Source of the DNA: Bacilli bacterium
GTDB lineage: Bacteria; Bacillota_I; Bacilli_A; ML615J-28; CAG-313
DNA: 64,000 bases
Assembly: GCA_017501465.1 (NCBI GenBank)
Contig: JAFVWY010000012.1
Coordinates: 10,191-74,190 of the forward strand
Reading direction: 5' to 3'
Shown: positions 2,529 through 54,830 of the stretch, one piece after another
Position numbering within the stretch: the stretch's first letter is position 1
Layout of the letters: each line of letters begins with the position of its first letter
Position numbers and translations under genes: made by a program
Notes under the pieces: model-generated
Told to the model about the DNA's origin: nothing
Database searches by the model: none
Seen by the model: the letters and a program-made list of their open reading frames with translations, nothing else

Positions 2529-2578
2529 AAGCATAAAATAAATAAAAATATCCATCCTATTATTAAGGAGGGATATTT

Positions 2579-3467: not shown

Positions 3468-3499
3468 TTTATAGTTATCTTTTTTTAATTGTTAACACT

Positions 3500-3534
3500 A
3501 AATATTTTACTTTTTTTTACAAGTGTGGTATAAT
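3500..3534 (+). promoter_or_regulatory. Putative promoter for glyQS leader (extended -10 TGTGGTATAAT)
   Basis: TGnTATAAT at 3524-3534; weak -35. Confidence 0.4.
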
Positions 3535-3544
3535 AAGAAATAAT

Positions 3545-3760: not shown

Positions 3761-3761
3761 T

Positions 3762-5132: not shown

Positions 5133-5200
5133 TTTTTCAAAAAAAAGAGTAAATTTTAAAAAAATAAAGTATTATATAGGTATAGGAAGGAGGTATTGTT

Positions 5201-6958
5201 ATGATATCACAAGAAATTATTAATCAAATAATAGATAAAGTGAATATTGCAGAAGTTATTTCTGAATATATCCAAGTGTTACCTGATGGTACGGGCTTTA
5301 AATCTGTATGTCCATTTCATAATGATACTAATCCTTCAATGAAAATAAGCCCTAATAAAAAAATATTTAAATGTTTTAGCTGTGGCGCTGGTGGTAATGT
5401 AATCCAATTTGTATCAAGATATGAAAAAATTGGTTTTACTGAGGCTGTTAGCAAACTTGCTAAAAGAATAGGTATTGAAATTCAAACTAATGTTGATCCA
5501 AATTATGAAACTAAAAAAAGATTCTATCAAATTTTAGAAGAAAGTTGTAATTTCTTTACTTTCTATTTAGAAAACTCTGATGAGGGGAAGATAGCTTTAA
5601 ATTATTTGGAAAAACGTGGTATTACAAAAGAAATAATCAAACATTTTCAAATTGGTCTTGCTCCAAAAGAAGATGATTATTTGCATAAAGCATTAGAACA
5701 AAATGCTTTTAGCATAATTGATCAAATTGAATCAGGAATGGTTAGAAAACGTAATGATGACAGTATTGTAGATTCTTTTAGAGCACGAATTATGTTTCCT
5801 ATTCATGATATTAATAATCGTGTAGTTGGATTTAGTGGTCGTACATATTTAGAAAATGATAAATCACCAAAGTATATTAACTCTAATGAAAACTTAATTT
5901 TCCATAAGAGCGAAGTTTTGTATAATTATGCAAGAGCTAATGAATTTGCTAGAAAAGAAGATACTGTATTTGTTTTCGAAGGATTTATGGATGTTATTGC
6001 TGCATATAAAGCAGGAGTAAATAATGCAGTTGCTACAATGGGAACTGCACTTACTAAACAACATCTTAAATCACTTCAAGCACTAGCATCTAAAATTGTT
6101 TTATGTTTTGATGGTGATAATGCTGGTATAAATGCTACCTATAAAGCTGCTAGTGTATTTTCAACAGTTAATGCAATTCCGTATGCGGTTAGTTTACCTG
6201 ATAGTATGGACCCTGATGAATATCAAGTTAAATATGGAAGTGAAGCATTAAATAAATATTTATATGAAAACCAACAAAATGTTTATGACTATATTTACAA
6301 TGTTGCAAAGCAAGATTTAATAAAATCGGATGTAGTAAGTGTTTCAAGATTCAAAGAAAAAGTTTTTGCTTTCTTGAAATTTGCCAATAACACGATTAAA
6401 GAATTCTATATTAATCGCATGTGTATCGATTTAGATATGGATCAAAATGCTTTACTTGCGGATTTAGGTGAAGTATCACAAAGAGAACATGTACCAGTGC
6501 AAGTTAGTGAAATGCCTAAAAAACAAATTATTAAGCCGATCCCTAAAAAGATTTTTTCTGCTTTAGATATAATTATCAAACATGCTATATATAATAAGGA
6601 AGAATTTACTAGTTATTACTGTGATTATCATAGTTATTTACCAATCGTTGATTTTTCTGATTATTATGAAATTTTATTTAGAATTGCTGAACAATATACG
6701 ACTAAAGATACGATTGATATTGAACAATTAAAAGAAAGTTTTATTGAAAATTCTTCTGAACAACTTTTATTAAATAAAATATTAGAGTTCAATTTTGTAG
6801 ATTTAGAAAGTAAAAAAGAATTTGAAGATTGTTTAAAACAAATTAAAGATTATTCAGCTAAAAAATATAAAAATGCTAAATTTTTAGGTGCATTAGAAAA
6901 TGATGATATGATTAGTGAATATTTTAATTTTTTAAAAACATTAATTATTATACAGTAG
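5201..6958 (+). CDS. dnaG: DNA primase
   Basis: N-terminal zinc ribbon [10 protein letters not shown]...[28 protein letters not shown]; dnaG-sigA operon. Confidence 0.95.
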
Positions 6959-6966
6959 GAGGTATT

Positions 6967-8235
6967 ATGGAAGAATTATATAAAAATGAATTGCAACAAT
7001 TAAAAGATTTTGCAGAAAAAGAACAATATTTACCTTTAACAAAGATTTTAGAGGTATTTCAAAATCCTAATGAAGAGTTATTAGATGATATTGTTAAATA
7101 TTTAGAAAATGAAGGAATTGAAATTACACGTGAAAGTGATGAAATTCCTGATGAAATGGATTTAATGGTAGAAAAAGTTGATGATGACTTCGAAGGATTT
7201 GGGGAAGAAGTAGAAATTGATGAAGAATTAGAAGAATTAACTGCTGTATGTGAAATTGAAATCAAAGTAGCTGACTTTGAAGATTTCTCATCTTCATCTC
7301 ATCAAGCGGATGACCCAGTTAAGATGTATTTAAGAGACATTGGTCAAGTTGATTTATTAACTATTACGCAAGAATCTGAATTTGCTAGAACTGTCCAAGA
7401 AGGCTTAGCATCAAAAGAAAAAATAGAGGTTTTTAAGAAACTTGGAAAAGCTATTTCTGAGGAAGAAATGAAAAACTTACAAGAAAAGATTCAAAGAGGT
7501 GATGAAGCTAGAGACATCTTAATTGAATCTAACTTAAGATTGGTAGTTTCTATTGCTAAACGATATCTTGGTAGAGGATTGCCACTACTTGATTTAATAC
7601 AAGAAGGTAATATGGGGTTAATTAAAGCGGTTTATAAATTTGATCCTACAAAAGGATTTAAATTTTCAACATACGCTACTTGGTGGATAAGACAATCTAT
7701 CACTCGTGCAATAGCAGACCAAGGTAGAACAATTCGTATTCCAGTTCACATGGTTGAAACAATTAATAAATTGATGAGAATCACTAGAAAATTAACTCAA
7801 GAAAAAAGAAGAGAACCTACTCCAGAAGAAATCGCTGCTGAAATGAAAATCTCTGTTGAAAAAGTTCAACAAATTCAAAAAATTGCTCAAGAGCCATCTT
7901 CATTGGATGCAACTGTCGGGGAAGAAGAAGATACAAATTTAGGTGATTTCATTGCTGATACAGAAATTCAAAATCCATTAGAATATACTGAAGGACAAAT
8001 CTTTAGAGAAGAAATAGAAGCTGTTTTACAAACTTTAACTCCTCGTGAAGAAAAAGTTATTCGTTTGCGATATGGATTAGATGATAATAGAGCTAGAACA
8101 CTAGAAGAAGTTGGTAAGGCATTTGGCGTTACAAGAGAAAGAATTCGCCAAATTGAAGCTAAAGCGATTAGACGTCTACGCCATCCTACTCGTCTAAAAA
8201 GATTACAACAACACCGAACTAGTAATTTGAAATAA
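6967..8235 (+). CDS. sigA: RNA polymerase sigma-70 factor RpoD/SigA
   Basis: Regions 2-4 conserved ([25 protein letters not shown], 4.2 [22 protein letters not shown]), acidic N-terminal region. Confidence 0.95.
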
Positions 8236-8918
8236 TGATCTTATCGAAACGTTTATCTAAAGTTTTAGATTATATTGATAATTTGGATATTGTTGCAGAT
8301 ATTGGTGCAGATCATGGATATTTATCTTTAGAAATGCTTAATAAAGGAGTTCAATTCATTCAAGTAGTAGAAAATAAAATTGAACCCTTAAAAAGAGCTC
8401 AATTAACTTTAGGGTTTCCAAATAATATCAAATATAGTCTATCGGATGGAATTAGTGATTTAGATGAAAAGATTAATACAGTTACCATTTGTGGTATGGG
8501 TGGTTTAAATATCGTTGAAATATTAAATAATAATCTAAGTACTGCAAAAAGATTAAAAAAATTAATTTTACAAGCTAATTCAAAAGTTTATGAATTAAGG
8601 AAATTCTTAAATTTATCAGGATTTTTAATTGATGAAGAAGAAATAGTTTATGAAAAAGGTAGTTATTATGAGATAATTGTGTGTCATTATGATGAATTTT
8701 CACAAACAAATATTTCCGAGGAAGAATTATTTTTTGGACCTATTTTACTAAAAAAACAGTCACTTGATTTTATAAGTAAGTACGAACAAAAATTAAATCT
8801 TTACCTAAATATCTTAAATAATAACGATATTTCAAACAATGAAGATATAGAATCTTTACAAAATAATATAAATTTAATCAAACAATATGTAAAAGGTGAT
8901 TGGTATGGTCAAAATTAA
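8235..8918 (+). CDS. trmK: tRNA (adenine22-N1)-methyltransferase TrmK
   Basis: DIGADHGYL SAM-binding motif, GMGG; precedes nif3 as yqfN-yqfO in Bacillus. Confidence 0.8.
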   Translation: MILSKRLSKVLDYIDNLDIVADIGADHGYLSLEMLNKGVQFIQVVENKIEPLKRAQLTLGFPNNIKYSLSDGISDLDEKINTVTICGMGGLNIVEILNNNLSTAKRLKKLILQANSKVYELRKFLNLSGFLIDEEEIVYEKGSYYEIIVCHYDEFSQTNISEEELFFGPILLKKQSLDFISKYEQKLNLYLNILNNNDISNNEDIESLQNNINLIKQYVKGDWYGQN

Positions 8919-9687
8919 CGACATTTTTAACTATATGACGTCATTGTATCCAATTGAATTTGCCTCAAATTTTGATATTGGCAAAGTTGGATTACAATTT
9001 GGTAGTATGGATGATACAGTTAATAAAGTAATTTTGTGTTTAGATATTACTGATGAGGTAATTGATGAGGCAATTAGTAAAGGTGTAAATTTGATTATCG
9101 CACATCATCCTTTTATGTTTACCCCTTTAGTAAATTTGAATTATGATTCAATTTTTGGTAAAAAATTACTTAAGATATTTAATAATCGGATAAATATTAT
9201 GGCTTTCCATACTAATTTTGACGTTGCAAATGAGGGTATGAATGATACACTATCAAAAAGACTTGGTTTAAAAAATATTAAAATGACAACTAATGAATTA
9301 GGTAGTGAAAGTTTTGTAAGAATCGGTGAATGTGAAAAAACAAATTTAAAAGATTATTGCTTAATTGTGAAAAAGGCATTCGCCTTAGATGTGGTAAGAG
9401 TGGCTGGAAATTTAAATAAAGAAATTACTAAAGTTGCAATAGTTGGTGGAAGCGGATCATCATCTTATCACGAAACGTTAAAAAATGGCGCAGATGTTTT
9501 TATAACTGGTCAAATACCTCATCATTTAGGTTTTGATGCGGTAGAAAACAATTTTGCTTTAATTGAAGTTTCGCACGGAATTGAGTTTTTTGGTGTAGAA
9601 ACAATGAAAAAACAATTAGAAGAACAGTTTAAGACAATTGAATTTATTATTACAAATTGTAATATGGATCCTTTTGTGGCTATATAG
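8896..9687 (+). CDS. Nif3-family dinuclear metal centre protein (YqfO-like)
   Basis: IAHHP and HxxxE..SHG pattern of NIF3 family; synteny after trmK. Confidence 0.8.
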   Translation: MIGMVKINDIFNYMTSLYPIEFASNFDIGKVGLQFGSMDDTVNKVILCLDITDEVIDEAISKGVNLIIAHHPFMFTPLVNLNYDSIFGKKLLKIFNNRINIMAFHTNFDVANEGMNDTLSKRLGLKNIKMTTNELGSESFVRIGECEKTNLKDYCLIVKKAFALDVVRVAGNLNKEITKVAIVGGSGSSSYHETLKNGADVFITGQIPHHLGFDAVENNFALIEVSHGIEFFGVETMKKQLEEQFKTIEFIITNCNMDPFVAI

Positions 9688-27834: not shown

Positions 27835-28734
27835 ATGGAACATCTTATTAAAGAATATCAGTATTACTTACAAAGTGTTAAAATGATGAGTCAAAATAGT
27901 ATCCTATCATATATTAATGATGTTACTAACTATTTGAATTTCTTAATATCTAAATATCAAGTAGATGATATGGAAGATGTCGGCAGTGAAGAAATAAGAA
28001 GCTATCTTGCAAGCCTTAAGAAGAAAAAAATGTCTTCAGCTTCGATGAGTAGAAATTTATGTAGTGTTAAATCGTTTCATCGGTTTTTATATGAAGAACA
28101 GTATACGAAGAAAAATGTTTCTAAAGAAATTGCTGCTCCTAAAATGGAAAAAAAATTACCAACTGTTTTATCGGTTGATGAGGTCACTAAACTTTTAGAT
28201 ATTGTCCAAGGAGATAAACCTTTAGATAAAAGAAATCAGGCAATGTTAGAAATGATTTATGCAACAGGGCTACGTGTAAGTGAATTGTGTAATATTAAAA
28301 TTACTGATTTAAGATTTACATCCAAACAAATAAGAATATTTGGCAAAGGATCTAAAGAAAGAATAGTACCTATTAATGATTTTGCTTTAAAAAAGATTAG
28401 AACCTATATGTTAGAAGCTAGACCGATTTTGTTGGGAACAAAAAAAGATCAAGGTTTTCTATTCTTAAATAATCATGGTGAAGTAATTACTAGAGTTGGT
28501 TTTTTTAAAATTTTAAAAACTTTGTGTAGTGAAGCAGGAATTGAAAAAAATGTTTCTCCACATACCTTAAGACATTCTTATGCTACGCACTTATTAGAAG
28601 CAGGTGTAGATATTCGTTTGATTCAAGAGATGCTAGGACATGAAGATATTGCTACTACACAAATTTATACTCATTTGAGTTTAAATAAAATTAAGGAAGT
28701 CTATGGAATGGCTCATCCTAGACAGAAAGAGTAA
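27835..28734 (+). CDS. xerD: Tyrosine recombinase XerD (RipX-like)
   Basis: C-terminal catalytic box HTLRHSYATHLLEAGVDIRLIQEMLGHEDIATTQIYTH with R..HxxR..Y; N-terminal SAM-like core-binding domain; xerD-deoB synteny. Confidence 0.85.
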   Translation: MEHLIKEYQYYLQSVKMMSQNSILSYINDVTNYLNFLISKYQVDDMEDVGSEEIRSYLASLKKKKMSSASMSRNLCSVKSFHRFLYEEQYTKKNVSKEIAAPKMEKKLPTVLSVDEVTKLLDIVQGDKPLDKRNQAMLEMIYATGLRVSELCNIKITDLRFTSKQIRIFGKGSKERIVPINDFALKKIRTYMLEARPILLGTKKDQGFLFLNNHGEVITRVGFFKILKTLCSEAGIEKNVSPHTLRHSYATHLLEAGVDIRLIQEMLGHEDIATTQIYTHLSLNKIKEVYGMAHPRQKE

Positions 28735-30864: not shown

Positions 30865-30906
30865 GGTATTTTTACTTTGATGTTAATAAATAGTTATAAG
30901 TAGTGT

Positions 30907-31765
30907 AAAAGTCTGATTTTGAGCTTAAAATCAGGCTTATTTTTTATTATAAATGTAGCAAATAAGATGCTTAAAAATTGATTTTTGAGAGTTTGAATGG
31001 GTATTTAATAACATAAAAAAGTCTCAATTTACTATAGAACGGTTTTAATATATAAATTATTATTAAATAGTGCAAATCTTAAAATATTAAATGCAATTTA
31101 TACACTGTTAAATACTACTTAATAACAGGTTATAAACAGTTATCCAAAGTTATTTTATTTTCCATTTTATCGGCTTTTTGCCTAGATAATTAAGAAGTTA
31201 ACATAATATATATTATAGGAAGTAAAAGCAATATAGAAACAAACCAAATAAAACTATTTTTATTACTTCTTATCTTATCGATTATATAGTTTATTTGTCG
31301 ATTTTAATAGAAATATATAAAATAAACTAGCTCATTTTTTAAAACATGATTATGTTTAAAAATTTATCTTTAAGTAAAACTATCAATCAATTCTACTTCT
31401 TAATTATCAACCCTAAAAAACCTCCAAAATCGTTTTTTTATACTATTTTGAATAATTATTCATCTTCTTTAAAAGTCTCAAATTGAGCTTAAAAATGGCC
31501 TAATTTTTAAGTCTTAAAAAATAAAAAAATCTATTATAAAATATTAATTTATAATAGATCAATTGTTGTTTATAAACCCTTCTTAAAGAGTTTGAAATAT
31601 ATTTGATGAGTAAATATCTATATAAGATTCTGTTGTAAGGCTTATATAATATAAATAAAAAATCTACTTTTTGATAAAAACTATTTTTTAGTTTTTTAAA
31701 AAGTAGATAATTATGTTTTAAAAGCCTTCTGTGAGCGTTTGAAATCTTCCAAATGAGTAAATACT
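30907..31765. repeat. ORF-free AT-rich zone built of degenerate copies of a short repeat (AAAAGTCTCA-N-GAGC(G)TTTGAAAT...AATGAGTAAATA) plus an 11-bp inverted repeat
   Basis: Related copies at 30907-30947, 30987-31030, 31471-31510, 31578-31618, 31720-31765; IR ATCTACTTTTT/AAAAAGTAGAT at 31662-31708. Confidence 0.5.
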
Positions 31766-31797
31766 AATTTAAGTTTCTATAAAACGCTTTAACAAAG

Positions 31798-32613
31798 CTA
31801 AAAATTTAGTTTATTAGTTATTTTTAAGCCTAACTCGTCAGCGTATTGATATGCAAGTTTTGTATATTGATCATTAAAAGCTTCTACAGAATGTGAATCA
31901 TCATTAATGACAATAATCAGATCTGGATGATTATCTTGGAATTTTTTAATGACTTGCCAGAAAGGAATATACGGATATTTAAAAAGTTTAGAATCTAAAA
32001 TACCGTTATTTTTGAATACAGAGCTTCTAATACCATTTGCATTGAATTCTAACGCAACATGGTTTTTTAAAGCTGTTTCTGCGATTGAAATAGCGACATT
32101 TTCACATTGTTTAGTAAAACTTGGGTATCTATACATATACAATTCAGGATGAGCAAATATTTTGAATAATCCCGTTTCCATCGCGTTTAAAACCTTATTT
32201 TTATAAATCTCAATATCATCTTCATTAAAGTCGTATGAATAAGTACTTTTGTAATTACCATCTTTATAAATTTCATGTTGGCCTAGTACTAAATAGTCAA
32301 CTTTTTCCCTTAATGTGGTAATTCGAGATTGGTAATGGTCGTAATATTCTATTTCAAGCGCTGTGAGAACGGTTATTTGGTCATTATACTTCTTCTTTAG
32401 GTTGTTTAAGTCCTTAAGATAGACATTAATGAATTCATCTTCTGACATACGTCTTGATCTAAGTTTTAGTGTTAATTCATCACTAATTGGTCCATGATCA
32501 GAAATACCAATATGGCAAAATCCATCTTGAATGGCCTTTTGAATGTATTCTTCACTAGTTCCAGTCGCATGTTTACAAAGATAAATATGTGTATGATAAT
32601 TAGCAATTCGCAT
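31798..32613 (-). CDS. PHP-domain phosphoesterase, histidinol-phosphatase (HisJ/HisK) family
   Basis: N-terminal HTHIYLCKHATG, ISDHGP, EIEY, AHPEL, EFNANG, DDSH metal-ligand pattern; 271 aa. Confidence 0.6.
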   Translation of the reverse strand: MRIANYHTHIYLCKHATGTSEEYIQKAIQDGFCHIGISDHGPISDELTLKLRSRRMSEDEFINVYLKDLNNLKKKYNDQITVLTALEIEYYDHYQSRITTLREKVDYLVLGQHEIYKDGNYKSTYSYDFNEDDIEIYKNKVLNAMETGLFKIFAHPELYMYRYPSFTKQCENVAISIAETALKNHVALEFNANGIRSSVFKNNGILDSKLFKYPYIPFWQVIKKFQDNHPDLIIVINDDSHSVEAFNDQYTKLAYQYADELGLKITNKLNF

Positions 32614-32615
32614 TT

Positions 32616-33653
32616 CTATTCACCAACAACCCTTGATAAAGGAACATTTTCAGTATTTTTTCGCCATTTTGCACTTCGACCAGTTCCTAAAGGCATAATT
32701 ACGCCATCATCTCTTAATTTGTTTAAAACACGATTAATTGTCGCATCACTAACACCTGGATTTAATTCCCTAACATCATCTTTAGAAAAGAATTCAGGAA
32801 GTTTATAAATACTAGTTTCCACATTATCAGTTTTTAAACCTTTATTTTGGTATTCATATTTTTTAACATCTTCGTTTAATGTTTTATAAGCATCAATGAT
32901 AATATCAAAAATAACCTTACTAAATCCGGTAGCTTGGATAAAACCATCAAAATAGTTAATGCTAGCTTTTTTAATTTCATCTTCTATTATAGCGTATTTT
33001 TCATAGAAAAATTTGAATAAACTTTGATATTTAAACACAGTAATATTATTTCTACACATTGAATAATATAAAGATATTAAGGCTGCTAATTCATTTTCTG
33101 AATTAAAAGGTTGTAAATTAATTATATCTAAATATAATATTACACTCAAAATGATTGGTTCATATTTTTTATTATCAATAAATAATTGGTATTCATCTAA
33201 ACACTCATTTATTAATAAACGAACAGATTGTTTGATAATTCGTTTATTTACAACGGTATTGATTGTTTTATTATTATAATTAAATTTATGTTTACCATAG
33301 ATATGATTTAAGTATGATATTAATTCACCAGCATTTAAAGGATATCTAAGGGCATCGGTTTTAATAATTTGAAAGGTTGTTTTAATATTTTTAATGGCTT
33401 CTTCTTCTTTATTTTTGGGTTGAATATCTTTATTTAATAGTAAACGTATTCTATTATCTGTAACTTCTAGGCCTAAAATATGAGCAATATAGAAAGTATC
33501 TTCTAAAAGAGTCTTTTCTTCACTAATTTCTTTTAAAGTGCCTAATTTATCAAGGTATGTATCAGTTTTACCGATTTCTTTATAGGCATTTAACATTTGG
33601 ATTAATAATTCGGATGGTATAATATAATGATTTAAGTTTTCAAAATTACTCAT
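32616..33653 (-). CDS. Fic-fold-like protein with degenerate active-site motif and C-terminal winged-helix domain
   Basis: QPFNSENELAALI aligns to Fic HPFxDGNGRxxRLL with H, D, G, G, R all replaced; C-terminal ATINRVLNKLRDDGVIMPLGTGRSAKWRK wHTH. Confidence 0.35.
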   Translation of the reverse strand: MSNFENLNHYIIPSELLIQMLNAYKEIGKTDTYLDKLGTLKEISEEKTLLEDTFYIAHILGLEVTDNRIRLLLNKDIQPKNKEEEAIKNIKTTFQIIKTDALRYPLNAGELISYLNHIYGKHKFNYNNKTINTVVNKRIIKQSVRLLINECLDEYQLFIDNKKYEPIILSVILYLDIINLQPFNSENELAALISLYYSMCRNNITVFKYQSLFKFFYEKYAIIEDEIKKASINYFDGFIQATGFSKVIFDIIIDAYKTLNEDVKKYEYQNKGLKTDNVETSIYKLPEFFSKDDVRELNPGVSDATINRVLNKLRDDGVIMPLGTGRSAKWRKNTENVPLSRVVGE

Positions 33654-34256
33654 TTATAATACCCCTTTCTATTTTAGAATAATGACAACCACAATAGTTT
33701 TGTCGGTATAATTCATATTTTTTAGATAGTTCGATGGATTTTTGATATCCATTTTGTAGTTTAAAGTTAGAATAAATAAAAGGAACGTCAACAATTTTTG
33801 ATAATTCAAAGCCAATTTCGTTAATCCAAGTACTATTTTTATGTGGACTAATACTTAAAGTTGTTGTCCAATAATCATAGTTATGTTCTTTAGCATAGAG
33901 TGCTGTTTTATACATTCTCAATTTATAACAGTGATAGCAGCGAATGGATTTTTCTTTTAAATGTTCAAATCCTTTGATACTATTATAGAAGTTATAGGTG
34001 TATAAGGATCAATAATAACTTTTGATTCTGGGGTTAATATGTTTGCAATTCTGACTTGTTCTTCACTTCTTTTATTGAATTCTTCAATTGTATCTAGGTT
34101 ATCATTTGAATAGAAAACATCGACTTGAAAACCTTCTTTTAAAAGTTCAATACAAGCTGAACTACATGGTCCACAACAACTATGTAGAAGTATTTTTTTG
34201 TTGGTTTTATCTTGGATTAATGATAGTAATGATTTATAATCCAAAACGTTGTTCAT
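33646..34256 (-). pseudogene. queH: Epoxyqueuosine reductase QueH (DUF208) interrupted by a frameshift
   Basis: N-terminal ORF 33957-34256 carries LLHSCCGPCS; C-terminal ORF 33646-33921 carries RCYHCY (reading-frame extension), TTTLSISP and YCGCHYS; frames switch near 33995-34010 (IIDPY then YNFYNSIKGFEHLKEKSIRCYHC in the other frame). Confidence 0.6.
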
Positions 34257-35159: not shown

Positions 35160-35918
35160 TTATGATCTCTTTCTAATGTTTTTTTCTTGTTTTGATAATG
35201 CAATTAATTGTTTAACTTCGTGAACAGTTAAATTTCTAACTTCACCTGATAGTAAATCTTTGGTTGTAACTACGCCAAATCTAGTTCTTGTTAATTTTTT
35301 TACAGGATGGTTAATTGCTAAAAACATGTTTTTAACTTGGTGATATTTACCTTCAGTGATAATTATTTTAATTAAACTAGAATTATGTTCTCTATCAACG
35401 GAAACTATTTCGACATAAGCCGGTAAGTAGCTAGTTCCTTTATATTCTAAACCATGAATTAAAGGGTTTAATTCTTTAAATTCAACCACTCCTTCTACTC
35501 TAGCTAAGTATTCTTTTTCAATGCCACTGCGAGGTCCTACCATATGATTCATAAATTCCCCATCATTAGTAAGTAGTAAGATACCTTTCGTATCGTAGTC
35601 TAATCGACCTACGGGGAATAGACGAAATTCTTTATAAATTTCAGGTAAAATATCGATAACTGTTTTGCGTTTATGTTCATCTTTAACAGAACATATAACA
35701 CTTTGCGGTTTATTAAGGGCAAGGTAAATTTTTTCTTCAACCTTAGTTATTAATTTATTATTAACTTTAATTTGATCTTTATCAGATACTAAGAAGCCCA
35801 TTTCAGTTACTACTTGGTCATTTACTTTAACTTGTCCAAGTTTAATTAATTCTTCTGCTTTTCTTCTTGATGCAATACCACTTGCAGCAATTCTTTTTTG
35901 TAATCTTTCCATAAACAT
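35160..35918 (-). CDS. rluB: 23S rRNA pseudouridine synthase, RluB/RsuA family
   Basis: N-terminal S4 domain (RLQKRIAASGIASRRKAEELI) and catalytic GRLDYDTKGILLLTNDGE. Confidence 0.8.
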   Translation of the reverse strand: MFMERLQKRIAASGIASRRKAEELIKLGQVKVNDQVVTEMGFLVSDKDQIKVNNKLITKVEEKIYLALNKPQSVICSVKDEHKRKTVIDILPEIYKEFRLFPVGRLDYDTKGILLLTNDGEFMNHMVGPRSGIEKEYLARVEGVVEFKELNPLIHGLEYKGTSYLPAYVEIVSVDREHNSSLIKIIITEGKYHQVKNMFLAINHPVKKLTRTRFGVVTTKDLLSGEVRNLTVHEVKQLIALSKQEKNIRKRS

Positions 35919-35980
35919 TTTTCTCCACTATAAATTATACTAGAAAAAAATCAAAATGTAAAATGTTAAATAAAAAAATA

Positions 35981-36051
35981 AAACCCCGTTTAGAGCGTTT
36001 GAGATTCATTAACTTGGTAATTAATCATCTCGAACGCTTAAAATGGGGTTT
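35981..36051. repeat. 71-bp palindromic repeat element (copy A): AAACCCC-GTTTAGAGCGTTTGAGAT-loop-ATCTCGAACGCTTAAAAT-GGGGTTT
   Basis: Long imperfect hairpin; near-identical reverse-complement copy at 44748-44819; half-copies in 30.9-31.8 kb zone. Confidence 0.65.
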
Positions 36052-36055
36052 CAAA

Positions 36056-36934
36056 TTATAAATATTTATTTGCTAAAGTTTTATGAACTGACCAATCTGA
36101 AGAAATATTAAAAGAAACGATGATAATTAGATTTTCTCCTTTTTCATAAACACTAACTAACGTTCGTCCTGCTTTTTTAGTATAACCAGTTTTACCTCCG
36201 ATTAAAAAGTTTTCGGTAATAAGTAATTTATGCTTGTGTCTTACATAAATTGTTCGTTCATCAAATTTAATTTTATATTCTTTTAATCCAATTAAGTCTT
36301 TTAAATAAGGATACTTTAATAATTCTTTAGTTATTATTGCAAAGTCATAAGTTGAAGTATAATTAAATTCATCTTCATCAAGTCCAGTTGTATTATTAAA
36401 GATCGAGTTTTTCAACCCTAACCGTTTAACTTCATCATTCATTAATAAAATAAAATCATCAGGATTATCGCTATAGGCATATTGTAAAGCTTTAGCCGCA
36501 TCATTTCCACTTTGTAGAATCATTCCGATAATCAAATCTTCTACCCGTATTAGATCATCTTTTTCTAGATAGATTCTACTACCAGTAACATTAATCATAT
36601 CGGAAGATATTTTTATGACTTTATTTAAATCAATGTATTTATAAGCTACTAGTGCTGTTAAAAGTTTAGTCAAACTTGCAGGTAACATTTTTTGATGAAT
36701 ATTGTTTTGATATAATATTTCATCATTATTAACACTATATACAATTGTTGATGAATTATTATAATTATTCATGACTAGTTTTACATCATTATTAGTCTTA
36801 GAATAGATTATTAAAATAATCGTACAAAGCCATAATATTAACCATACAATGTTAATTATTAATTTTCTTTTATTCATATTATCACATTTAATAATATGAA
36901 TAGACATTAAAAAATATGAAAAAACACTATACAC
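36056..36934 (-). CDS. dacA: D-alanyl-D-alanine carboxypeptidase (S11, PBP5-like)
   Basis: SxxK motif PASLTKLLTA, SGN (LQSGND), KTG (GKTGYT); true start probably the internal Met of the MNKRKLIINIVWLILWL signal peptide. Confidence 0.8.
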   Translation of the reverse strand: MYSVFSYFLMSIHIIKCDNMNKRKLIINIVWLILWLCTIILIIYSKTNNDVKLVMNNYNNSSTIVYSVNNDEILYQNNIHQKMLPASLTKLLTALVAYKYIDLNKVIKISSDMINVTGSRIYLEKDDLIRVEDLIIGMILQSGNDAAKALQYAYSDNPDDFILLMNDEVKRLGLKNSIFNNTTGLDEDEFNYTSTYDFAIITKELLKYPYLKDLIGLKEYKIKFDERTIYVRHKHKLLITENFLIGGKTGYTKKAGRTLVSVYEKGENLIIIVSFNISSDWSVHKTLANKYL

Positions 36935-36950
36935 AATGTATAGTGTTTAG
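36905..36950 (-). terminator. Terminator after miaA
   Basis: Minus-strand AAACACTATACATTGTGTATAGTGTTTTTTC hairpin plus U-run. Confidence 0.5.
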
Positions 36951-37828: not shown

Positions 37829-39639
37829 TAGTTGTTAACCCTCTTAAATAGTTTTTCAATTTCATAATTAGTAAACTTAATAAGAGTTGGTCTGCCATGT
37901 GGACAAGTGTATGGCATTTCGCATAAATCTAAGTTTTTAAGTAATTCCAATACTTCTTCTTTACTAATTTGCATATAAGCTTTAATTGATTTCTTGCAAC
38001 TTAAACTTTTAGCAAGACTTTCATACATAATAGCTTTATTAACAATATACTTATTAGTTATGTGATTAAAAATATCGCTTAAGAATTCAATTTGTAAGTC
38101 TTTAGGAATCCATGCAGGAATAGTTCTTACTATAATTGTGTTATCGCCAAAATCGTCAAATATGATTCCTAATTTGTTGATCTCCTCTTTTGCTTTGAAA
38201 ATCGATTCAATTTCTGCTTTGGTATATTCTAAAGTAATTGGAATTAATAAATCATAGCAATTATTATCAGGATTATTTAAAATCTTACTAATTTTTTCAT
38301 ACATACATCTTTCCATTGCGGCATGTTGGTCGATTAAATAAAGGATAGAGTCATCTTCTAATAAAAGATAAGTTTGATGATATTGTCCAATATAATTTAA
38401 ATTTTGGAAGAATGTTCTTTGATTATTTTTTTCATCAAGAGCGAAATTCACTTGAACTTGTTCAATTTGTTTTTCTTCTTTGATAACAGGTTCAATGAAG
38501 GTTACTTTTGTTTCATCAAATTGTAATGTCCAATCATCTTCACTTTCTTTTTCATCAACCTCATTTAAAGAGCTCGAAACTTCAAAATCCTCATCATTAC
38601 TCATTTCAACTTCTGTAAAACGACTTTCAGCTTTTTGAAATTTTAAAAGTTCTTGTTCATGTAAAGCCTTCTTTATAGTTTGTGTGATTAAATATTTAAG
38701 ACTTGCTTCATCGGTAAATCTAATTTCTAGTTTAGATGGGTGAACATTTACATCAATTAAATCATAATCACATTTAATATTTAAAATAGTAACTGGATAC
38801 TTACCCACTGGTAAAATAGTTTGATATGCATCAGTAATGGCATATAAAATATTTAAATTTCTAATCACTCTTCCATTTACAATAACCACTAATGCATTGC
38901 GATTGCTTTTAAATATTTCATTATTAGTAGAATAACCACTAATTGTATAAAAGTTATTTTTATTTTTAAATTCAATCATTTTAGAAGCAGTCTTAACTCC
39001 ATAAGCTTCACTTATAACTTCTAATAAATCGTTATTACCACTTGATTTAAAAAGTAATTTTCCATTATTTGATAATTGAATACTAATATTAGGATTAGAA
39101 ATAGCCACTTTGTAAACATAGTCACTAATAGCATTTAATTCTTGATATTCATTGCCTAAATGTTTATATCTTGCAGGAGTATTGAAAAACAAATTCTTAA
39201 CTTCTACTTGTGTTCCACGAGGTAGGTTTGCAATTCCTTCATTTATTTTTTTACCTGCTTTATATTGAATATAGTAATTTGTATTACCATCATTCGAAGT
39301 AATTCTAAATTCAGATACGCTACAAATGGAAGCTAAAGCTTCGCCACGAAAGCCTAAGGAAGCAATTTTAAATAAATCATCTTCATTCAATATTTTACTT
39401 GTGGCATGTCTTTTAACAGCAAGTTCTAATTGTGATTGGTTAATGCCTTCTCCATTATCCAATACACAAATTCCAACTAAACCACAATCAGTTAAATCGA
39501 TTTTAATACTAGTTGAAGCGGCGTCAATGCTATTTTCAACTAATTCCTTAACCACATTCATTGGTCTTTCGACAACTTCACCGGCAGCGATTAAGTTAGT
39601 TATATTATCTGATAATTCATTGATTTTTTTAATTTCCAT
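37828..39639 (-). CDS. mutL: DNA mismatch repair protein MutL
   Basis: GHKL ATPase N-terminus (AAGEVVERP, ELVENSIDA, DNGEGI), C-terminal dimerisation domain. Confidence 0.95.
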   Translation of the reverse strand: MEIKKINELSDNITNLIAAGEVVERPMNVVKELVENSIDAASTSIKIDLTDCGLVGICVLDNGEGINQSQLELAVKRHATSKILNEDDLFKIASLGFRGEALASICSVSEFRITSNDGNTNYYIQYKAGKKINEGIANLPRGTQVEVKNLFFNTPARYKHLGNEYQELNAISDYVYKVAISNPNISIQLSNNGKLLFKSSGNNDLLEVISEAYGVKTASKMIEFKNKNNFYTISGYSTNNEIFKSNRNALVVIVNGRVIRNLNILYAITDAYQTILPVGKYPVTILNIKCDYDLIDVNVHPSKLEIRFTDEASLKYLITQTIKKALHEQELLKFQKAESRFTEVEMSNDEDFEVSSSLNEVDEKESEDDWTLQFDETKVTFIEPVIKEEKQIEQVQVNFALDEKNNQRTFFQNLNYIGQYHQTYLLLEDDSILYLIDQHAAMERCMYEKISKILNNPDNNCYDLLIPITLEYTKAEIESIFKAKEEINKLGIIFDDFGDNTIIVRTIPAWIPKDLQIEFLSDIFNHITNKYIVNKAIMYESLAKSLSCKKSIKAYMQISKEEVLELLKNLDLCEMPYTCPHGRPTLIKFTNYEIEKLFKRVNN

Positions 39640-39642: not shown

Positions 39643-42219
39643 TTATTCACCTAATTTCTCTTTTAATTCACTAAGTAATAGTAGTGCTTCAATAGGTTTT
39701 AAATTTTCCACATCGGCTTTTAAAATCTTTTCTATGACAAATGTTTCTTTAGGGTCTCGTTTATCAATGATAGTTGGTTTTTGATAATTATCAATTGATA
39801 ACAAAGATGCATCAATCGTGTTATTTATTAGTAATTTTTCTAAAATATCAGTAGCTCTAAAGATAACCTCTTCTGGGATCTTAGCAAGTTGGGCAACATT
39901 AATACCATAACTCTTATCTGTTGAACCAGGTAATACTTTATGCATAAAGATAATATCGCCATTTTCTTCTTTAGCATCTACATGTAAATTCTTCAAATGA
40001 GGCAAACTTTGATCTAGGTTAGTTAATTCATGATAATGTGTGGAGAATAAAGTTTTACAACAAGTATTATTATGTAAATATTCGATAATACCTTGTGCTA
40101 AAGCCATACCATCATAGGTTGCTGTACCTCTTCCTACTTCATCAAATAAGATTAAGCTTTTATAGGTTGCATTTTGTAAAGCGTAATTTACTTCATTCAT
40201 TTCTACCATAAAAGTAGATTCACCAGATGTAATATCATCACTAGCACCAATTCTTGTAAAAATTTGATCATATAGTGGTAAAGTAGCACTTGTTGCACTA
40301 ACAAAACAACCAATTTGAGCCATAATACTAATTAAAGCTGTTTGGCGCATAAAAGTGCTCTTCCCACTCATATTTGGACCAGTAATCAACATAACATAAT
40401 CAGTATTATCCATCTTCAAATCATTAGAAATAAAGATCTTATCTCTATTTGATTCAATAACTGGATGTCTTCCATCTTTAATATCTACTTCGCCATATTG
40501 TGAAAAGACAGGACGAACATAGTTGTTTTTTCTAGCAACATTAGCAAAGCTAGTTAACATGTCTATTTCACTAATAATTAAGGCAGTCATTTGAATTTCA
40601 TGACAGAATTTCTTACAAACATTGCGAATCTCTTCAAATAATTCCATTTCAATTTGAAGGGCTCTTTCTTCACTTCTTAGAATTAAAGCTTCTCTTTCTT
40701 TAAGTTCTTCAGTAATGTATCTTTCAGAGTTTGCGGTTGTTTGTTTTCTAATATAGCCAAACTCATCTTTTACTAAATGAATGTTAGGTTTTGTTATTTC
40801 AATATAATAACCAAATACACGATTATAACCTACTTTTAAGTTTTTAATACCTGTTTTTTCTTTTTCGTTTAGTTCTAAATTTGCAAGGAAGGCTTTATTA
40901 GATGAATTAATGTTTTTGACTTCATCTAATTCTTTTGAATACCCTTCTTTAATAAAACCACCATCTCTTAATAAGTACGGAGCATCTTCTTTTATACTAC
41001 TACTAATTAAACTTGTAATTTCATCATAAATTTTAATTTGATCATTAAAGTTTTGAAGACTAGAACCCTTCATTTTCTTCAGTGTTTTTTTAATGTTAGG
41101 CAGTTCAGACAAAGATCTATTTAATTGTAGTAAATCTTTTGGTGATAATGATCCATAGCTAATGCGTCCAACAATACGTTCTAAGTCATAAATTTCTTGA
41201 AGGGAAGTTTTTAAATCTGGTAGTAGTAAATAATTTTTCATTAATTGTTCTACAATATCTAATCGTTTATTAATATTATTGATATTGGTAAATGGAAACA
41301 TAATAGAACGTTTTAAGAATCTACTACCCATTGCTGTTGAACAATGGTCTAAAATACCAAACAAACTTTTATTAGAGTCATTATTTCTAATAGAACTAAT
41401 CAATTCTAAATTTCTAACAGTGTTAAAATCTAATTTTAAGAATTCATTAATGTCATAATATTTAAATGGTTTTAGATGCATTAAAGTTCTTTTTTGTGTA
41501 TTAATTAAATAACTTAAAATTTGCTCTACACATGGTTTTAATGAATTATCAAGTTGTTCAAATAAAACCGTTAAATAACTATCCAAAACCGTTGTCTCAG
41601 CGTTCGAAATTAAAATATGTAAGACATTTGTAAGATATTCTCTCACAATCTTAGGAATTGATGAATTGACAACAATTTCTTTAATCGATAATTTATTGAT
41701 TTCATTATATAATGCATCAAAATATTTAGGTAATTTAGTTATGTATGAATCACCTGTTGATAGGTCAACGTATGAAAAAGCAAAGCCATCTTCTAATTTA
41801 TCAATAGATGCTAAAAAGTTATTATTTTTTTCGTTTAAATAATGTTCGTCAATATTAGTGCCTGGAGTAATTATTTTAGTAACTTCACGTTTAACAATTT
41901 TTTTATTGTTAGCATCTTCCATTTGATCAACAATTGCGATTCGGTATCCTTTTTCACTTAAACGTTCAATGTAAGTTGTTACTGCATGATGGGGTACGCC
42001 AGCCATAGGTACTGGTTCATTTTGAACACCTACATCTTTTTTAGTTAAAATAATTTCAAGTTCACGACTTGCAACAATAGCGTCATTAAAAAACAACTCG
42101 TAAAAGTCGCCCACTCTAAAGAACACTAATGTGTCTGGATAATTTTCTTTGATAGTTAGATATTGTCTAATCATTGGAGTATAAAGATTTTTATCTATAT
42201 TTTCATACATACTATTCAC
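39643..42219 (-). CDS. mutS: DNA mismatch repair protein MutS
   Basis: GPNMSGKSTFMRQ Walker A, DEVGRGT, TH motif; 858 aa. Confidence 0.95.
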   Translation of the reverse strand: MNSMYENIDKNLYTPMIRQYLTIKENYPDTLVFFRVGDFYELFFNDAIVASRELEIILTKKDVGVQNEPVPMAGVPHHAVTTYIERLSEKGYRIAIVDQMEDANNKKIVKREVTKIITPGTNIDEHYLNEKNNNFLASIDKLEDGFAFSYVDLSTGDSYITKLPKYFDALYNEINKLSIKEIVVNSSIPKIVREYLTNVLHILISNAETTVLDSYLTVLFEQLDNSLKPCVEQILSYLINTQKRTLMHLKPFKYYDINEFLKLDFNTVRNLELISSIRNNDSNKSLFGILDHCSTAMGSRFLKRSIMFPFTNINNINKRLDIVEQLMKNYLLLPDLKTSLQEIYDLERIVGRISYGSLSPKDLLQLNRSLSELPNIKKTLKKMKGSSLQNFNDQIKIYDEITSLISSSIKEDAPYLLRDGGFIKEGYSKELDEVKNINSSNKAFLANLELNEKEKTGIKNLKVGYNRVFGYYIEITKPNIHLVKDEFGYIRKQTTANSERYITEELKEREALILRSEERALQIEMELFEEIRNVCKKFCHEIQMTALIISEIDMLTSFANVARKNNYVRPVFSQYGEVDIKDGRHPVIESNRDKIFISNDLKMDNTDYVMLITGPNMSGKSTFMRQTALISIMAQIGCFVSATSATLPLYDQIFTRIGASDDITSGESTFMVEMNEVNYALQNATYKSLILFDEVGRGTATYDGMALAQGIIEYLHNNTCCKTLFSTHYHELTNLDQSLPHLKNLHVDAKEENGDIIFMHKVLPGSTDKSYGINVAQLAKIPEEVIFRATDILEKLLINNTIDASLLSIDNYQKPTIIDKRDPKETFVIEKILKADVENLKPIEALLLLSELKEKLGE

Positions 42220-44569: not shown

Positions 44570-44747
44570 GAACTATTCCTCCTTCTATATTATTTTAAGA
44601 CACGCCATTAAGGTATAAGTCATTACTTATTTTACGTAACCTTTTCAGTGCGGTTGCCATATCGCAACATACATATTATACAATATTACTCATTTTTTTG
44701 CAAGTGTTATGTTAATTAAATTTGTATATAAAAGTATGTTTATCTTT

Positions 44748-44819
44748 AAAACCCGTTTTTACGCGTTCGAAAATTAAAAAAACAGGTATTTAATCGTTCA
44801 AACTCTAAAAAAAGGGTTT
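44748..44819. repeat. 72-bp palindromic repeat element (copy B, inverted relative to copy A)
   Basis: AAAACCCG-TTTTTACGCGTTCGAAAAT-loop-AATCGTTCAAACTCT-AAAAAAAGGGTTT; reverse complement aligns with 35981-36051. Confidence 0.65.
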
Positions 44820-44825: not shown

Positions 44826-45518
44826 TTATTGGTTTTGTCTTTTTTTCATTCTTTCCCAAGCAATATAACCATAAATATCATTTATAAAGAAAGCAATGAA
44901 ACAGCCAACAACGGATACATAAGTTATATTTTCTATTGAAGCTAAAGTCCATAAAACAATTAAAACAATATCGTTTAAAGAATAGGCTAAGGCAAAATAT
45001 GGACTTCTTCTAAATGTCAAATATACTGCAACTGTACTAGTTAAAACAGAAATAGTACTAAATATTAAATTAGAAGTTTCAAAATATTTTAAGATAAAGT
45101 AAAATAATATTGTAATTATAATTGCTACAGGAAGAAATAAAAGGATTTCTTTTAATCTCACATGATTAACACTTACTTCTGTTTTATTATCTTTGTAGGG
45201 ATTTTTGATCCAACTGACCAATGAGACTATAGCAAAAGGCATTGTCATACCAAAGTATGTAATTACTTCTCCATAGTACTGATAAGAAAATGAAATTATG
45301 GCATATAAAGTACAAAAAATTATACCAACTATTTGACCAATAAAGTTGCCTTTAGCATTTAATATTAAAGAAATTACACCAATAATAGATGCTATAAAGG
45401 ATACATAGCCATTACCATCAAAAATAAAGAAAGCTAAACTAATAATTAGTATGGATGATATAAAAATGATCTTCTCAGTTAATGAAAAATAATTTATTAA
45501 TCTTTTCATGTAAGACAC
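44826..45518 (-). CDS. pnuC: Nicotinamide riboside transporter PnuC-like membrane protein
   Basis: 7 TM; NAKGNFIGQ...YAIISF...WIKN pattern resembling PnuC. Confidence 0.5.
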   Translation of the reverse strand: MSYMKRLINYFSLTEKIIFISSILIISLAFFIFDGNGYVSFIASIIGVISLILNAKGNFIGQIVGIIFCTLYAIISFSYQYYGEVITYFGMTMPFAIVSLVSWIKNPYKDNKTEVSVNHVRLKEILLFLPVAIIITILFYFILKYFETSNLIFSTISVLTSTVAVYLTFRRSPYFALAYSLNDIVLIVLWTLASIENITYVSVVGCFIAFFINDIYGYIAWERMKKRQNQ

Positions 45519-45526: not shown

Positions 45527-45562
45527 AAGAAGCATTCGAAATATTAATTCCGAATGCTTTTA
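45527..45562. terminator. Terminator after ppdK
   Basis: GCATTCGAAATATTAATTCCGAATGC hairpin with flanking T/A runs. Confidence 0.5.
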
Positions 45563-50679: not shown

Positions 50680-51954
50680 TTATTTTTTTAATTTAGGTCT
50701 TATTTCACTTACAAAATATAAGCTTCCTAAGAATAGATTTAGTTCATAAGGTTTATTTTGAACAAACTCAATAATCTCATCAATATCTTCCATAAGAATT
50801 TTATTATCATGTTTGGAATAATCAAATAACTCTTTTGCTGAACTATGTCTTTTATAAGTAAAACTAGTAATAATAATTTGATCAAAATGAGGTTCTAATA
50901 AACCTATCATCTTCTCTTTTTCTTTATTATCAGAACACGCAAAAATGCAGCGTTTAGTTGAATATTTTAATACATCAACAAATTCACATACTCGGTTAAC
51001 GCCATCAACATTATGACCACCATCCAATACAATTAATGGTTCTCGACTTATCACTTCTAATCTGCCTGGCCATTTTGTTTTCAATAAACCAATTTTTACT
51101 TTATCAAAGTCAGGAGTTTTATTTAGAATAGTTAATGCAACAAGAAAAGTTTGAATTGCTACTAAAGAATTCTCAACTTGATGGATGCCAGGTAAAGTAA
51201 TTTCATATTCACCAAATTCATTTGAGAGAATTTGAGTGGATTCCAAATCACATTTTTTAATTTCGAACGCTCCTAGAAGGGGTTTATAAATTTTTGAATT
51301 TAATTGACTACTTTTCTTTTCAGCAATTTCTATTAAATTGGCATCTTTAAGACCAACGACAAATGGAATATTTTTTTTAACAATTCCTAATTTATTGCTA
51401 AGTATTTCTTCTAAAGAATTACCTAAAACATTCATATGATCAAAGGATACATTGGTTATTGTTGAAACGATAGGAGTAATAACATTAGTAGAATCTAGTG
51501 TTCCACCAATTCCTACTTCGATAATCGAAATATCTGGTTGTTTATTTTCAAAATATAAAAAACAAAGTAAAGTAATGAATTCAAAAAAAGATGGAGTTTC
51601 TCCTGTTTTTTCTAAAAACAAAGGATACTTTTCAAGAATTTTATTTGCAAAAAACAATACCTCTTCATCTTCAATCATCGATTGATTATAACAAATTCTT
51701 TCATTAAACTTAGTTATATATGGTGATGTAAAAGTACCTACCGAAAAGCCATGTTCTAAAAACATATTTTTCAAATATGAAACAACTGAACCCTTACCGT
51801 TAGTTCCAGTAACATGAATAGTTTTAAATTTATTCTGTGGGTTATTAAAAACCTCACAATAAAACTTCATATTATCTAGACTTTTCTTTTCATGAAACCT
51901 TTTTTGATTTTCAACAAATGATAAAAAATCTTGAATATTGGTAAATTTATTCAT
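50680..51954 (-). CDS. folC: Folylpolyglutamate synthase / dihydrofolate synthase
   Basis: Mur-ligase P-loop [10 protein letters not shown]; folC-valS adjacency as in Bacillus. Confidence 0.8.
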
Positions 51955-54574: not shown

Positions 54575-54830
54575 AACCTCCTAATCAATAAAAAAAAGTC
54601 CCTAAGAATAACTCTTAAGGACGAAATAATCCGCGGTACCACCTTAATTAAAACAAATTAATGTTTTCACTTAATTAACTGTTAACGCCAGTGTACGTTC
54701 AATTCTACTACGATTTCAAATTGACTTCTCCAAGGCTACCTTCAAAATAACAATATGAAGTTTCACACCAAACAACTTCTCTCTGGAATATCGTTTATTT
54801 TTACTCTTCCTCTTCTTTGAATTTAGATAG
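54575..54830 (-). promoter_or_regulatory. T-box riboswitch leader for valS
   Basis: Minus-strand GGTGGTACCGCGG (plus 54631-54643), followed by terminator hairpin GTCCTTAAGAG..CTCTTAGGGAC plus U-run (54596-54622). Confidence 0.65.

Follow-up and report, generated by a model that had tools for sequence, protein, structure and literature searches.

A small family of palindromic elements beside dif in an uncultured Bacilli bacterium: candidate ancient terminators with a conserved half-site

Terminator hairpins of conserved sequence and families of palindromic repeats are already well known. In Bacillus subtilis the original replication terminus was identified as two large, imperfect repeats in inverted orientation, and the Rickettsia palindromic elements (RPEs) sit inside protein-coding genes. 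REPINs are defined as two inverted repeats around a spacer (PMC3337134, PMC3116915) and are vertically inherited and long-persisting (PMC3337134; bioRxiv 10.1101/2022.05.22.493013); the hallmark of a REP sequence is a GTAG or CGTC tag at one end, each REP being an imperfect palindrome (PMC3733652). In Neisseria, DNA uptake sequences (DUS) form inverted pairs at terminators and stand as single copies in DNA-repair genes (PMC2397512, PMC2346458). The subject here is a palindrome between dacA and rluB in a 64,000-nt stretch of DNA (the window; contig JAFVWY010000012.1, positions 10,191 to 74,190) from an uncultured 'Bacilli bacterium'. The organism is known solely from gut metagenomes and metagenome-assembled genomes (MAGs), the window has about 28% G+C, and SpoIVA and YqfD, both present, point to a spore former. 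The original prediction, made from the letters of the window, saw in the palindrome a dispersed repeat of mobile type. We lean instead towards regarding it and its relatives as ancient, vertically inherited terminators whose motif is under a second constraint at the DNA level, and not as active mobile repeats. The family is low-copy and lineage-specific, a new small family beside dif. What distinguishes it is the combination: few copies, vertical inheritance across a family-level clade, a 27-nt consensus conserved beyond pairing needs, solo copies within genes, and, in all the DNA examined, confinement to the 20 kb near dif.

A covariance model (R1) was built from seven copies, and the window was searched with filters off. 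The elements and their immediate flanks are as follows.

35981-36051, minus strand: copy A, full element, a near-perfect 71-nt palindrome (86 bits with the covariance model).
35965-35980, minus strand: U-rich tail UUUUAUUUUUUUAUUU of copy A, following the stem immediately on its 3' side (transcribed strand), its first four U overlapping the stem base.
35934-35962, minus strand: promoter-like site of rluB, TTTACA-17-TATAAT, 11/12 matches, with the -35 hexamer 19 nt downstream of copy A.
44749-44819, minus strand: copy B, full element in the same orientation as copy A (80 bits).
44675-44703, minus strand: promoter-like site TTGCAA-17-TATAAT downstream of copy B, 10/12 matches.
44588-44665, minus strand: L21 leader RNA upstream of rplU (RF00559, 38.5 bits), downstream of copy B and ordinary.
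31713-31793, minus strand: copy C, degenerate full element directly after the stop codon (31798-31800) of a PHP-domain phosphatase gene, with tail GGCUUUUAAAA (29.8 bits).
31567-31646, minus strand: copy D, degenerate element in the zone free of open reading frames (ORFs) around dif (19.2 bits).

Copy A lies exactly where the palindrome had been placed, and the flanking genes are those named at the time: dacA (Peptidase_S11; 36056-36934, minus) and rluB (S4 and PseudoU_synth_2; 35160-35918, minus). It begins 4 nt past the dacA stop codon (36056-36058) and consists of two inverted 27-nt half-sites (35980-36006, plus, and 36026-36052, minus) around the loop GATTAATTACCAAG; read on the minus strand it runs AAACCCC...GGGG and continues into the U-rich tail. 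In the window, AAACCC-N40-70-GGGTTT has two matches where shuffles lead one to expect 0.09, and GAGCGTTTGAR, when a single mismatch is allowed, has five (1.14 expected). The folding check on both strands that had been proposed gives -31.9 kcal/mol for the minus strand (z -7.9) and -34.9 for the plus strand (z -8.1). Copy B begins 6 nt past the pnuC stop codon (44826-44828), its tail GGGUUUUAAAG being a weak U-run (UUUU, and UU in the related locus L003). Its folding energy is -20.3 kcal/mol for the minus strand (z -2.8); the plus strand, at -13.2 (z -0.35), does no better than shuffles.

A second copy had been predicted here, but in inverted orientation; the copy is present and the inversion is not. 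The arms are nearly palindromic, so that copies A and B align in either orientation. The loop, however, is asymmetric (GATTAAWTACC; GATTAATTACC in copy A, GATTAAATACC in copy B), and the model scores copy A at 86 bits on the minus strand versus 58 on the plus, and copy B at 80 versus 48; both are therefore placed on the minus strand, as are all genes right of dif. Copy C holds a strong half-site (31720-31746, plus; 33.8 bits) and folds with -16.1 kcal/mol (z -1.9). Copy D, with a half-site at 31573-31599 (plus; 32.5 bits), is a 65-nt direct repeat of copy C at 72% identity. A simple terminator scanner allowed loops of 3-8 nt only and hence missed copies A and B.

Are the copies found at the same places in relatives? 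Contigs of relatives, given here by locus number, were chosen via an identical L21 protein and graded RluB homologs. Elements stand at matching orthologous positions in six lineages of uncultured Bacilli (RluB identity 70-84%) and in some more distant ones. In L155, L156, L157 and L182 copy A stands immediately ahead of the rluB promoter, RluB identity to the window being 84% in L156, 77% in L155 and 70% in L157. Two further lineages (L003/L008 and L006/L007) have copy B, again with pnuC on one side and the rplU promoter on the other. In L155, dacA has been cut down to a 3' fragment, with copy A and the rluB promoter intact, and in L182 there is no dacA and the copy A ortholog follows miaA. 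All five A orthologs have a U-rich tail on the transcribed strand. Covariation among orthologs is seen in the outer stem (CCCC/GGGG, CTCG/CGAG, GCCG/CGG), and the inner arms AGCGTTYGA/TCRAACGCT are nearly invariant. The original prediction would have given way to an ancient conserved terminator if relatives carried the sequence at orthologous intergenic sites and only two copies existed; the first is what was found, while the copies number more than two. As a separate observation, L155 (positions 1-9400) lacks the mutS-mutL-miaA block upstream of rluB and has in its place small ORFs, a group II intron reverse transcriptase and three serine recombinases.

The pairing itself can be followed across 17 copies. 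Paired cells amount to 81.5%, versus 21-54% with slid partners; two-sided changes occur in 21 cells versus 10 in shuffles (0/500), and the covariation score is 0.228 versus 0.158 (1/500). Because all three measures exceed their controls, the pairing is under selection. The two-sided changes fall in 13 cells of the outer stem versus 4 cells of the inner AGCGTTYGA/TCRAACGCT stem. G-U pairs (23) are not in excess of A-C mismatches (20), so that the counts favour neither strand as RNA. Identity between paralogs A and B is 63-78%, which is the range of the orthologs. This similarity fits selection toward a consensus, and not neutral decay of fossils or homogenisation within a genome. Concerted evolution was considered and is rejected for now, since orthologs resemble one another at least as closely as do the copies of a single genome.

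How might the element work? RNA polymerase leaving dacA would transcribe the copy A palindrome, and the nascent RNA would form an interrupted hairpin of about 30 bp, the C/G-rich base of which abuts UUUUAUUUUUUU. Release of the transcript would come 19 nt ahead of the rluB promoter's -35 hexamer, and the dacA and rluB units would thus be insulated from one another. The 3' hairpin of copy A could also protect the mRNA. Copy B would play an equivalent part in separating pnuC from the rplU leader, and so would copy C downstream of the PHP phosphatase gene. Intrinsic termination with insulation of the next promoter is the best-supported function of copies A, B and C, since position, strand, U-run and conservation agree. 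Each copy is a stable stem-loop with a G/C-rich base, on the transcribed strand right after a stop codon; a U-run lies directly 3' of the stem (that of copy A is kept in L155, L156, L157 and L182), and copies A and B are then followed by strong promoters (11/12 for rluB, 10/12 for the rplU leader). The early suggestion of a terminator-like element at gene 3' ends is thus in accord with the anatomy on the transcribed strand.

In these respects the element is like the intrinsic terminators of Firmicutes, which have a G/C-based stem-loop after the stop codon, a U-run and then the next promoter. Ordinary terminators of the window (30907-30945) have the outer design of the family, AAA-GYC..UUUUxAG/CUxAAAA..GRC-UUU. 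The element is unlike them in its length of about 70 nt, its 20-nt loop, the conservation of inner stem and loop sequence across paralogs and species, and its solo copies in genes; ordinary terminators keep structure only. A second constraint, acting on the DNA, is suggested because the need for a hairpin leaves the sequence conservation, the solo genic sites (in both orientations) and the clustering near dif unexplained. Under such a constraint the half-site motif would be held to its consensus, most simply by a putative sequence-specific binding protein.

The half-site consensus, AAAACCCTTCTnnGAGCGTTYGAAAT (27 nt), comes from 33 aligned examples (both arms, all copies) and has AGCGTTCGAA as its core; paired half-sites are inverted and about 46 nt apart, start to start. 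A weight-matrix scan of the window gives 12 half-sites with scores of 17.6-33.8 bits, the maximum over 20 shuffles being 18. With paired half-sites counted once, matrix and covariance model together yield nine sites, and the expectation of a family larger than two is borne out. So is that of half-site fragments in the 30.9-31.8 kb zone, where three were found (30974-31000, 31573-31599 and 31720-31746). The sites outside copies A to D, and two landmarks, are given below.

30974-31000, plus strand: weak half-site, 17.6 bits (at the shuffle maximum); the covariance model gives 22.5 bits for 30972-31053.
32350-32376, minus strand: solo half-site in the coding sequence of the PHP phosphatase, sense, encoding ITVLTALEI (25.1 bits).
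38549-38629, minus strand: whole-element copy in the variable linker of mutL, degraded, in-frame and on the sense strand (30.4 bits).
41585-41611, plus strand: solo half-site in the coding sequence of mutS, antisense to mutS (26.6 bits).
51259-51285, minus strand: solo half-site in the coding sequence of folC, sense, encoding KPLLGAFEI (31.3 bits); the covariance model gives 33.7 bits for 51212-51292.
45530-45559, minus strand: terminator hairpin of ppdK, AAGCAUUCGGAAU-UAAU-AUUUCGAAUGCUU, the stem of which resembles the inner arm of the family.
31196-31223, no strand assigned: dif site AGTTAACATAATATATATTATAGGAAGT, where GC skew switches and the gene sets on either side converge.

Several of the genic sites are present in relatives too. 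The PHP half-site has orthologs in L155 (13097-13123, 33.7 bits) and L157 (13522-13548, 25.7 bits), and the folC half-site is also in L006. The mutS half-site is present in L003 and L156 and absent in L157 (the most distant relative, with many differing positions there), the length being unchanged. The folC half-site is not an insertion, FolC aligning to 1O5Z and 1FGS without extra residues. Extra conservation at synonymous sites is undetectable for the mutS half-site (5th percentile) and moderate for that of PHP (87th percentile). Better-preserved orthologs of the mutL copy are found in L003 (7288-7368, 48.7 bits), where the element still folds (z -3.9), in L156 (37.8 bits) and in L157 (31.2 bits). 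The segment is missing from MutL of the outgroup L130 (an indel), although the length of this linker is variable anyway. Among the coding copies, the mutL one alone looks like an insertion. After ppdK, the Acholeplasmataceae MAG of locus L022 has a full family member.

The second constraint is also suggested by where the sites lie. The window spans the replication terminus, because it holds dif, a skew switch, converging genes and a nearby xerD: GC skew changes sign at about 31 kb, at dif; genes converge on the ORF-free zone (30.85-31.8 kb) that contains dif; and XerD is encoded at 27835-28734, 2.5 kb from dif. The identical dif 28-mer is found in four related genomes (loci L155, L157, L158, L108 and L182). 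All nine sites of the window are at 30.97-51.29 kb, that is, from dif to dif + 20 kb, a span of 20.3 kb. No above-threshold site was found in the window at 1-30.9 kb or 51.3-64 kb, nor in the 8.8 kb and 6.4 kb by which same-species DNA extends it at its two ends; the 59 kb of this species outside the 20-kb cluster thus hold zero copies. Over 79 kb of contiguous same-species DNA the clustering has a simulated p of about 1e-4, or 1.4e-3 if the dif-zone copies are counted once. The term 'dispersed' in the original prediction does not suit a family in which every copy found is within 20 kb of dif.

Related genomes show a similar distribution. At a threshold of 19 bits, the clade's dif-region loci hold 40 half-sites in 99 kb; there are 0 in 72 kb beside IS3 copies, 0 in 286 kb of distant rluB loci and 0 in 42 kb of two Acholeplasmataceae loci. 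The covariance model has no match in a further 14 kb sampled beside IS3 copies. The DNA of other regions sampled via IS3 transposase copies amounts to about 86 kb, and its hosts are possibly related organisms. Half-sites occur 150-400 bp from dif in all five genomes with dif on the locus, and on both sides in the four where both are visible. In the window, the weak half-site at 30974-31000 is about 200 bp from dif on the opposite side from the other sites. The half-sites of relatives extend along the same arm as those of the window; on the opposite arm there is a single strong site, in L182, at 4.4 kb from dif. There is turnover between lineages within the region: the window's subclade has mutS and folC sites, L157 has queH and miaA sites, and L182 a hemN-like one. 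Half-sites point both ways on one arm, and their orientation varies from genome to genome, with no consistent polarity relative to dif.

A scan of a genome collection with AAACCC-N5-8-AGNGTTYGA-N10-40-TCRAACNC gave at least 118 stretches; among the matches listed nearly all are chance (unrelated phyla), and only L022 and L108 are true members. Both of these members are in the syntenic region: that in L108 ('Bacillales bacterium UBA1427') is between the hydrolase gene and dif, about 660 bp from dif, and that in L022 ('Acholeplasmataceae bacterium') is directly after ppdK. A metagenome scan anchored on RluB found only relatives of 31-56% identity, without synteny and without the element. The plasmid and phage collections scanned contain no relatives of the element, and a full-text literature search for the core sequences returned primers only. 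In viral contigs a half-site scan gave five matches, four apparently chance and one a phage hairpin of uncertain kinship. The latter, on an IMG/VR phage contig of 31% G+C (L165, 3470-3600, minus), stands in the order promoter-like site, hairpin, ribosome-binding site, 97-aa ORF. The 5' arm of the hairpin is a half-site of 28.5 bits, AACCTTTCTCACAGCGTTTGAAAT, followed by the loop GGGTAATT and a matching outer stem (-28.7 kcal/mol, z -3.1). The contig may come from a phage of this clade with a relative of the element.

Several points weigh against our preferred interpretation. Termination is deduced from anatomy. The U-run of copy B is short (4 U) and is lost in L003, and the fold of this copy is no better than shuffles on the plus strand and modest on the minus strand. 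A hairpin of about 70 nt with a 20-nt loop is atypical, as intrinsic terminators usually have stems of 5-15 bp. The protein that would bind the half-site is putative. The clustering rests on 79 kb of the source species, whose genome is probably 1.5-2 Mb, and on loci anchored on genes of the window, and the approximately 86 kb of element-free DNA comes from hosts possibly outside the clade.

Could the family be the remains of a mobile element? A non-autonomous palindromic transposon, similar to a miniature inverted-repeat transposable element (MITE), a REPIN or an RPE, might have spread in an ancestor of the clade and survived where it was useful or harmless; we think this improbable, though worth weighing. 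Useful places would be the terminators, and harmless ones the ORF-free dif zone and the MutL linker. Two inverted repeats around a spacer answer to the REPIN definition, and long hairpins at gene 3' ends, vertical inheritance and long persistence are further similarities to REPINs and to REP sequences in bacterial interspersed mosaic elements (BIMEs). The half-site, on the other hand, is no palindrome and has no internal hairpin, none of the 33 aligned half-sites carries the GTAG/CGTC tag (PMC3733652), the copies are about ten and not hundreds, and they are clustered and not dispersed, some of them inside coding sequences. No RAYT was noticed in the loci examined, the window not having been exhaustively annotated.

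Evidence for past movement comes from the mutL copy. A foldable in-frame copy in the mutL linker of L003 (48.7 bits, z -3.9), in an indel relative to the outgroup MutL, recalls the RPEs within protein-coding genes, and the palindromic repeat is here likewise translated within a protein. On this evidence a past burst of transposition is conceivable but unlikely. RPEs are 100-150 bp long, number dozens to hundreds and are spread genome-wide, whereas this family has one insertion-like coding copy, the others being equal-length replacements: the half-sites in folC, PHP and mutS replace sequence without change of length. The several degenerate copies and the 65-nt tandem-like duplication in the ORF-free dif zone also speak for an old mobile unit. 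The hallmarks of movement, however, were looked for and not seen. The proposed search for target-site duplications was negative around A, B and their orthologs, and there are no empty sites or presence/absence polymorphism across the six lineages. The outer ends covary and the conserved block is internal, unlike the terminal inverted repeats bound by transposases, which in MITEs are the conserved outermost sequences. MITE copies are dispersed and polymorphic for insertion; here nine sites are clustered, with none in the 59 kb and approximately 86 kb of other DNA. Copy number is low (one full-length pattern match each in L022 and L108, among the matches listed), an IS3 copy (L160) and an IS605-type gene (L180) have no half-site nearby, and the plasmids and phages scanned yielded nothing related. 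Paralogs no more diverged than orthologs are contrary to neutral decay. The mobile, dispersed interpretation is thus largely not supported.

The alternative that had been named beside it, a recurrent protein-binding palindrome, is a live possibility, the binding protein being putative. On this view, the 27-nt half-site would be recognised by a putative protein that marks the 20 kb next to dif; as a full account we hold this for a minority view. The job might be similar to that of matS/MatP, of Ter/RTP or of the XerD sites at which SMC is unloaded in B. subtilis, or it might be an accessory one for Xer, the role in termination being secondary or co-opted; this too is a speculative option. The half-site would then be an independently invented analogue of matS/MatP, Ter/RTP and XerD-binding sites in spore-forming, low-GC gut Bacilli, which is possible but not what we expect. 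Inverted pairs would have been placed at terminators or co-opted as such, and single sites written into coding sequences under selection, a scenario that we regard with similar reserve.

Much of the distribution speaks for such a protein. Nine of nine window sites are within 20 kb of dif, half-sites stand 150-400 bp from dif in every genome with dif on the locus, and genic sites occur in either orientation and turn over between lineages yet stay confined to the region. Conservation goes beyond pairing needs, similarity among the copies is star-like, and there is no RNA strand asymmetry. The families of matS/MatP, Ter/Tus, Ter/RTP and B. subtilis XerD sites likewise consist of a low-copy conserved motif around dif, both intergenic and coding, and the arrangement of inverted sites in pairs is reminiscent of IRI/IRII, the repeats at the terminus of B. 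subtilis. The sites described here differ from those families in being much denser, confined to about 20 kb, mostly on one arm and without polarity toward dif, and the motif is not known to be related in sequence to the matS, Ter or XerD-site families. It is also unlike the XerC or XerD arms of dif. The recognising protein is putative, and in the source species the sites are abundant on one arm only. The absence of consistent polarity speaks against a polar fork trap or a KOPS-like signal, and as the skew switch coincides with dif, forks are not stopped 5-20 kb away. Two specific versions were tried. A polar fork trap, with Ter sites in two opposed groups, is unlikely given the mixed orientation and the skew switch at dif. 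A KOPS/SRS-like polarity (AGAAGGG is found in some spacers) was set aside, orientation being mixed and palindromic copies carrying both orientations. A non-polar role in marking the terminus, or an accessory role for Xer or SMC, is a possibility.

The cluster also contains a gene (32616-33653, minus) for a 345-aa protein with a Fido/Fic fold (PDB 8UQU, E 1e-15). Its active-site motif is degenerate (QPFNSENELAA versus HPFPDGNGRMS in 8UQU), and it has a C-terminal winged helix and ends in GTGRSAKW. The family of such Fic proteins with a winged helix-turn-helix is small and limited to uncultured Bacilli and Acholeplasmataceae. A link of this gene to the elements was considered and is unsupported, as the Acholeplasmataceae homologs adjoin parE/parC in loci without elements; its presence there counts against the idea of a terminus-specific protein as well.

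That the element serves chiefly as a structured RNA, whether a small RNA from a 3' untranslated region, an RNase III processing site or a cis-regulator of the rluB and rplU promoters or leaders, is very improbable. The very stable hairpin with its conserved asymmetric loop, the fact that the elements are always transcribed within the upstream mRNA, and the related hairpin of the phage contig, between promoter and ribosome-binding site, are in its favour. Rfam, however, gives at the gathering score the T-box and L21 leader only, and up to E 10 no more over copy A than meaningless miRNA-like hairpins; G-U pairs are no commoner than A-C mismatches, and solo half-sites and antisense coding copies are unable to form the structure. 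A DNA uptake signal of DUS or USS (uptake signal sequence) type is close to refuted by density and hardly credible, even though the core resembles DUS (AGCGTTTGAA versus GCCGTCTGAA) and a short conserved motif in inverted pairs at terminators, with single copies in genes that include mutS and mutL, is as in Neisseria (PMC2397512), for such signals number hundreds to thousands per genome (about one per kilobase) with a conserved unit of 9-12 nt, whereas this motif, of 27 nt plus loop, is absent from 59 kb outside the cluster, local and not genome-wide, and two orders of magnitude less dense.

What would follow from the preferred interpretation, of old terminators under a second constraint? Outside Bacillus and the enterobacteria, few terminus-organising sequences and proteins are known to us. 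If the clustering holds over whole genomes, the motif would offer a concrete and testable way into the organisation of the terminus in a Firmicute lineage that is uncultured. If copies turn out to be everywhere, the family would be an ordinary old repeat family domesticated as terminators, and would mainly help in annotating operon boundaries in MAGs.

The dif zone is rich in other repeats. A second repeat, AAAAGTCT(G/C)A(T/A)TTGAGCTTAAAA, is found at 30905-30945, 31017-31030 and 31471-31503, on both sides of dif and on the same strand, and its first copy doubles as a terminator-like hairpin after the hydrolase gene. Related units, 'GCCTAAAATAAGCCYATTTT', are present in the dif zones of L155, L157 and L182. 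A 24-nt inverted repeat (31175-31198 and 31395-31418, 83% complementary) has one arm abutting dif (...AATTAAGAAGT, then dif) and the other 196 nt off; the dif-adjacent arm is conserved in L155 and L157. A further inverted repeat, TAGTTTATTT...AAATAAACTA (about 31284-31330), is common to the window, L155 and L157. The ORF-free zone, more conserved than expected of a spacer, could hold an unannotated RNA or binding sites.

Elsewhere, queH (epoxyqueuosine reductase; 33646-34256, minus) is split into ORFs of 99 and 91 aa and is intact, at 203-205 aa, in L155, L157 and L182; the split is a frameshift or nonsense pseudogene or an assembly error. At the miaA/dacA junction a perfect 12-bp palindrome, AAACACTATACA-CAA-TGTATAGTGTTT (36922-36948), overlaps the listed start of the dacA ORF; it is unrelated in sequence to the family and is flagged as terminator-like on both strands. 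An IS3-family element (orfA/orfB; L160, 1823-3399), about 38 kb from dif, is inserted between an HU gene and an Rce1-like gene and is absent in L159, an insertion polymorphism within one species between different metagenomes. Upstream of valS there is a T-box leader (54614-54826, minus; 154 bits), which is ordinary.

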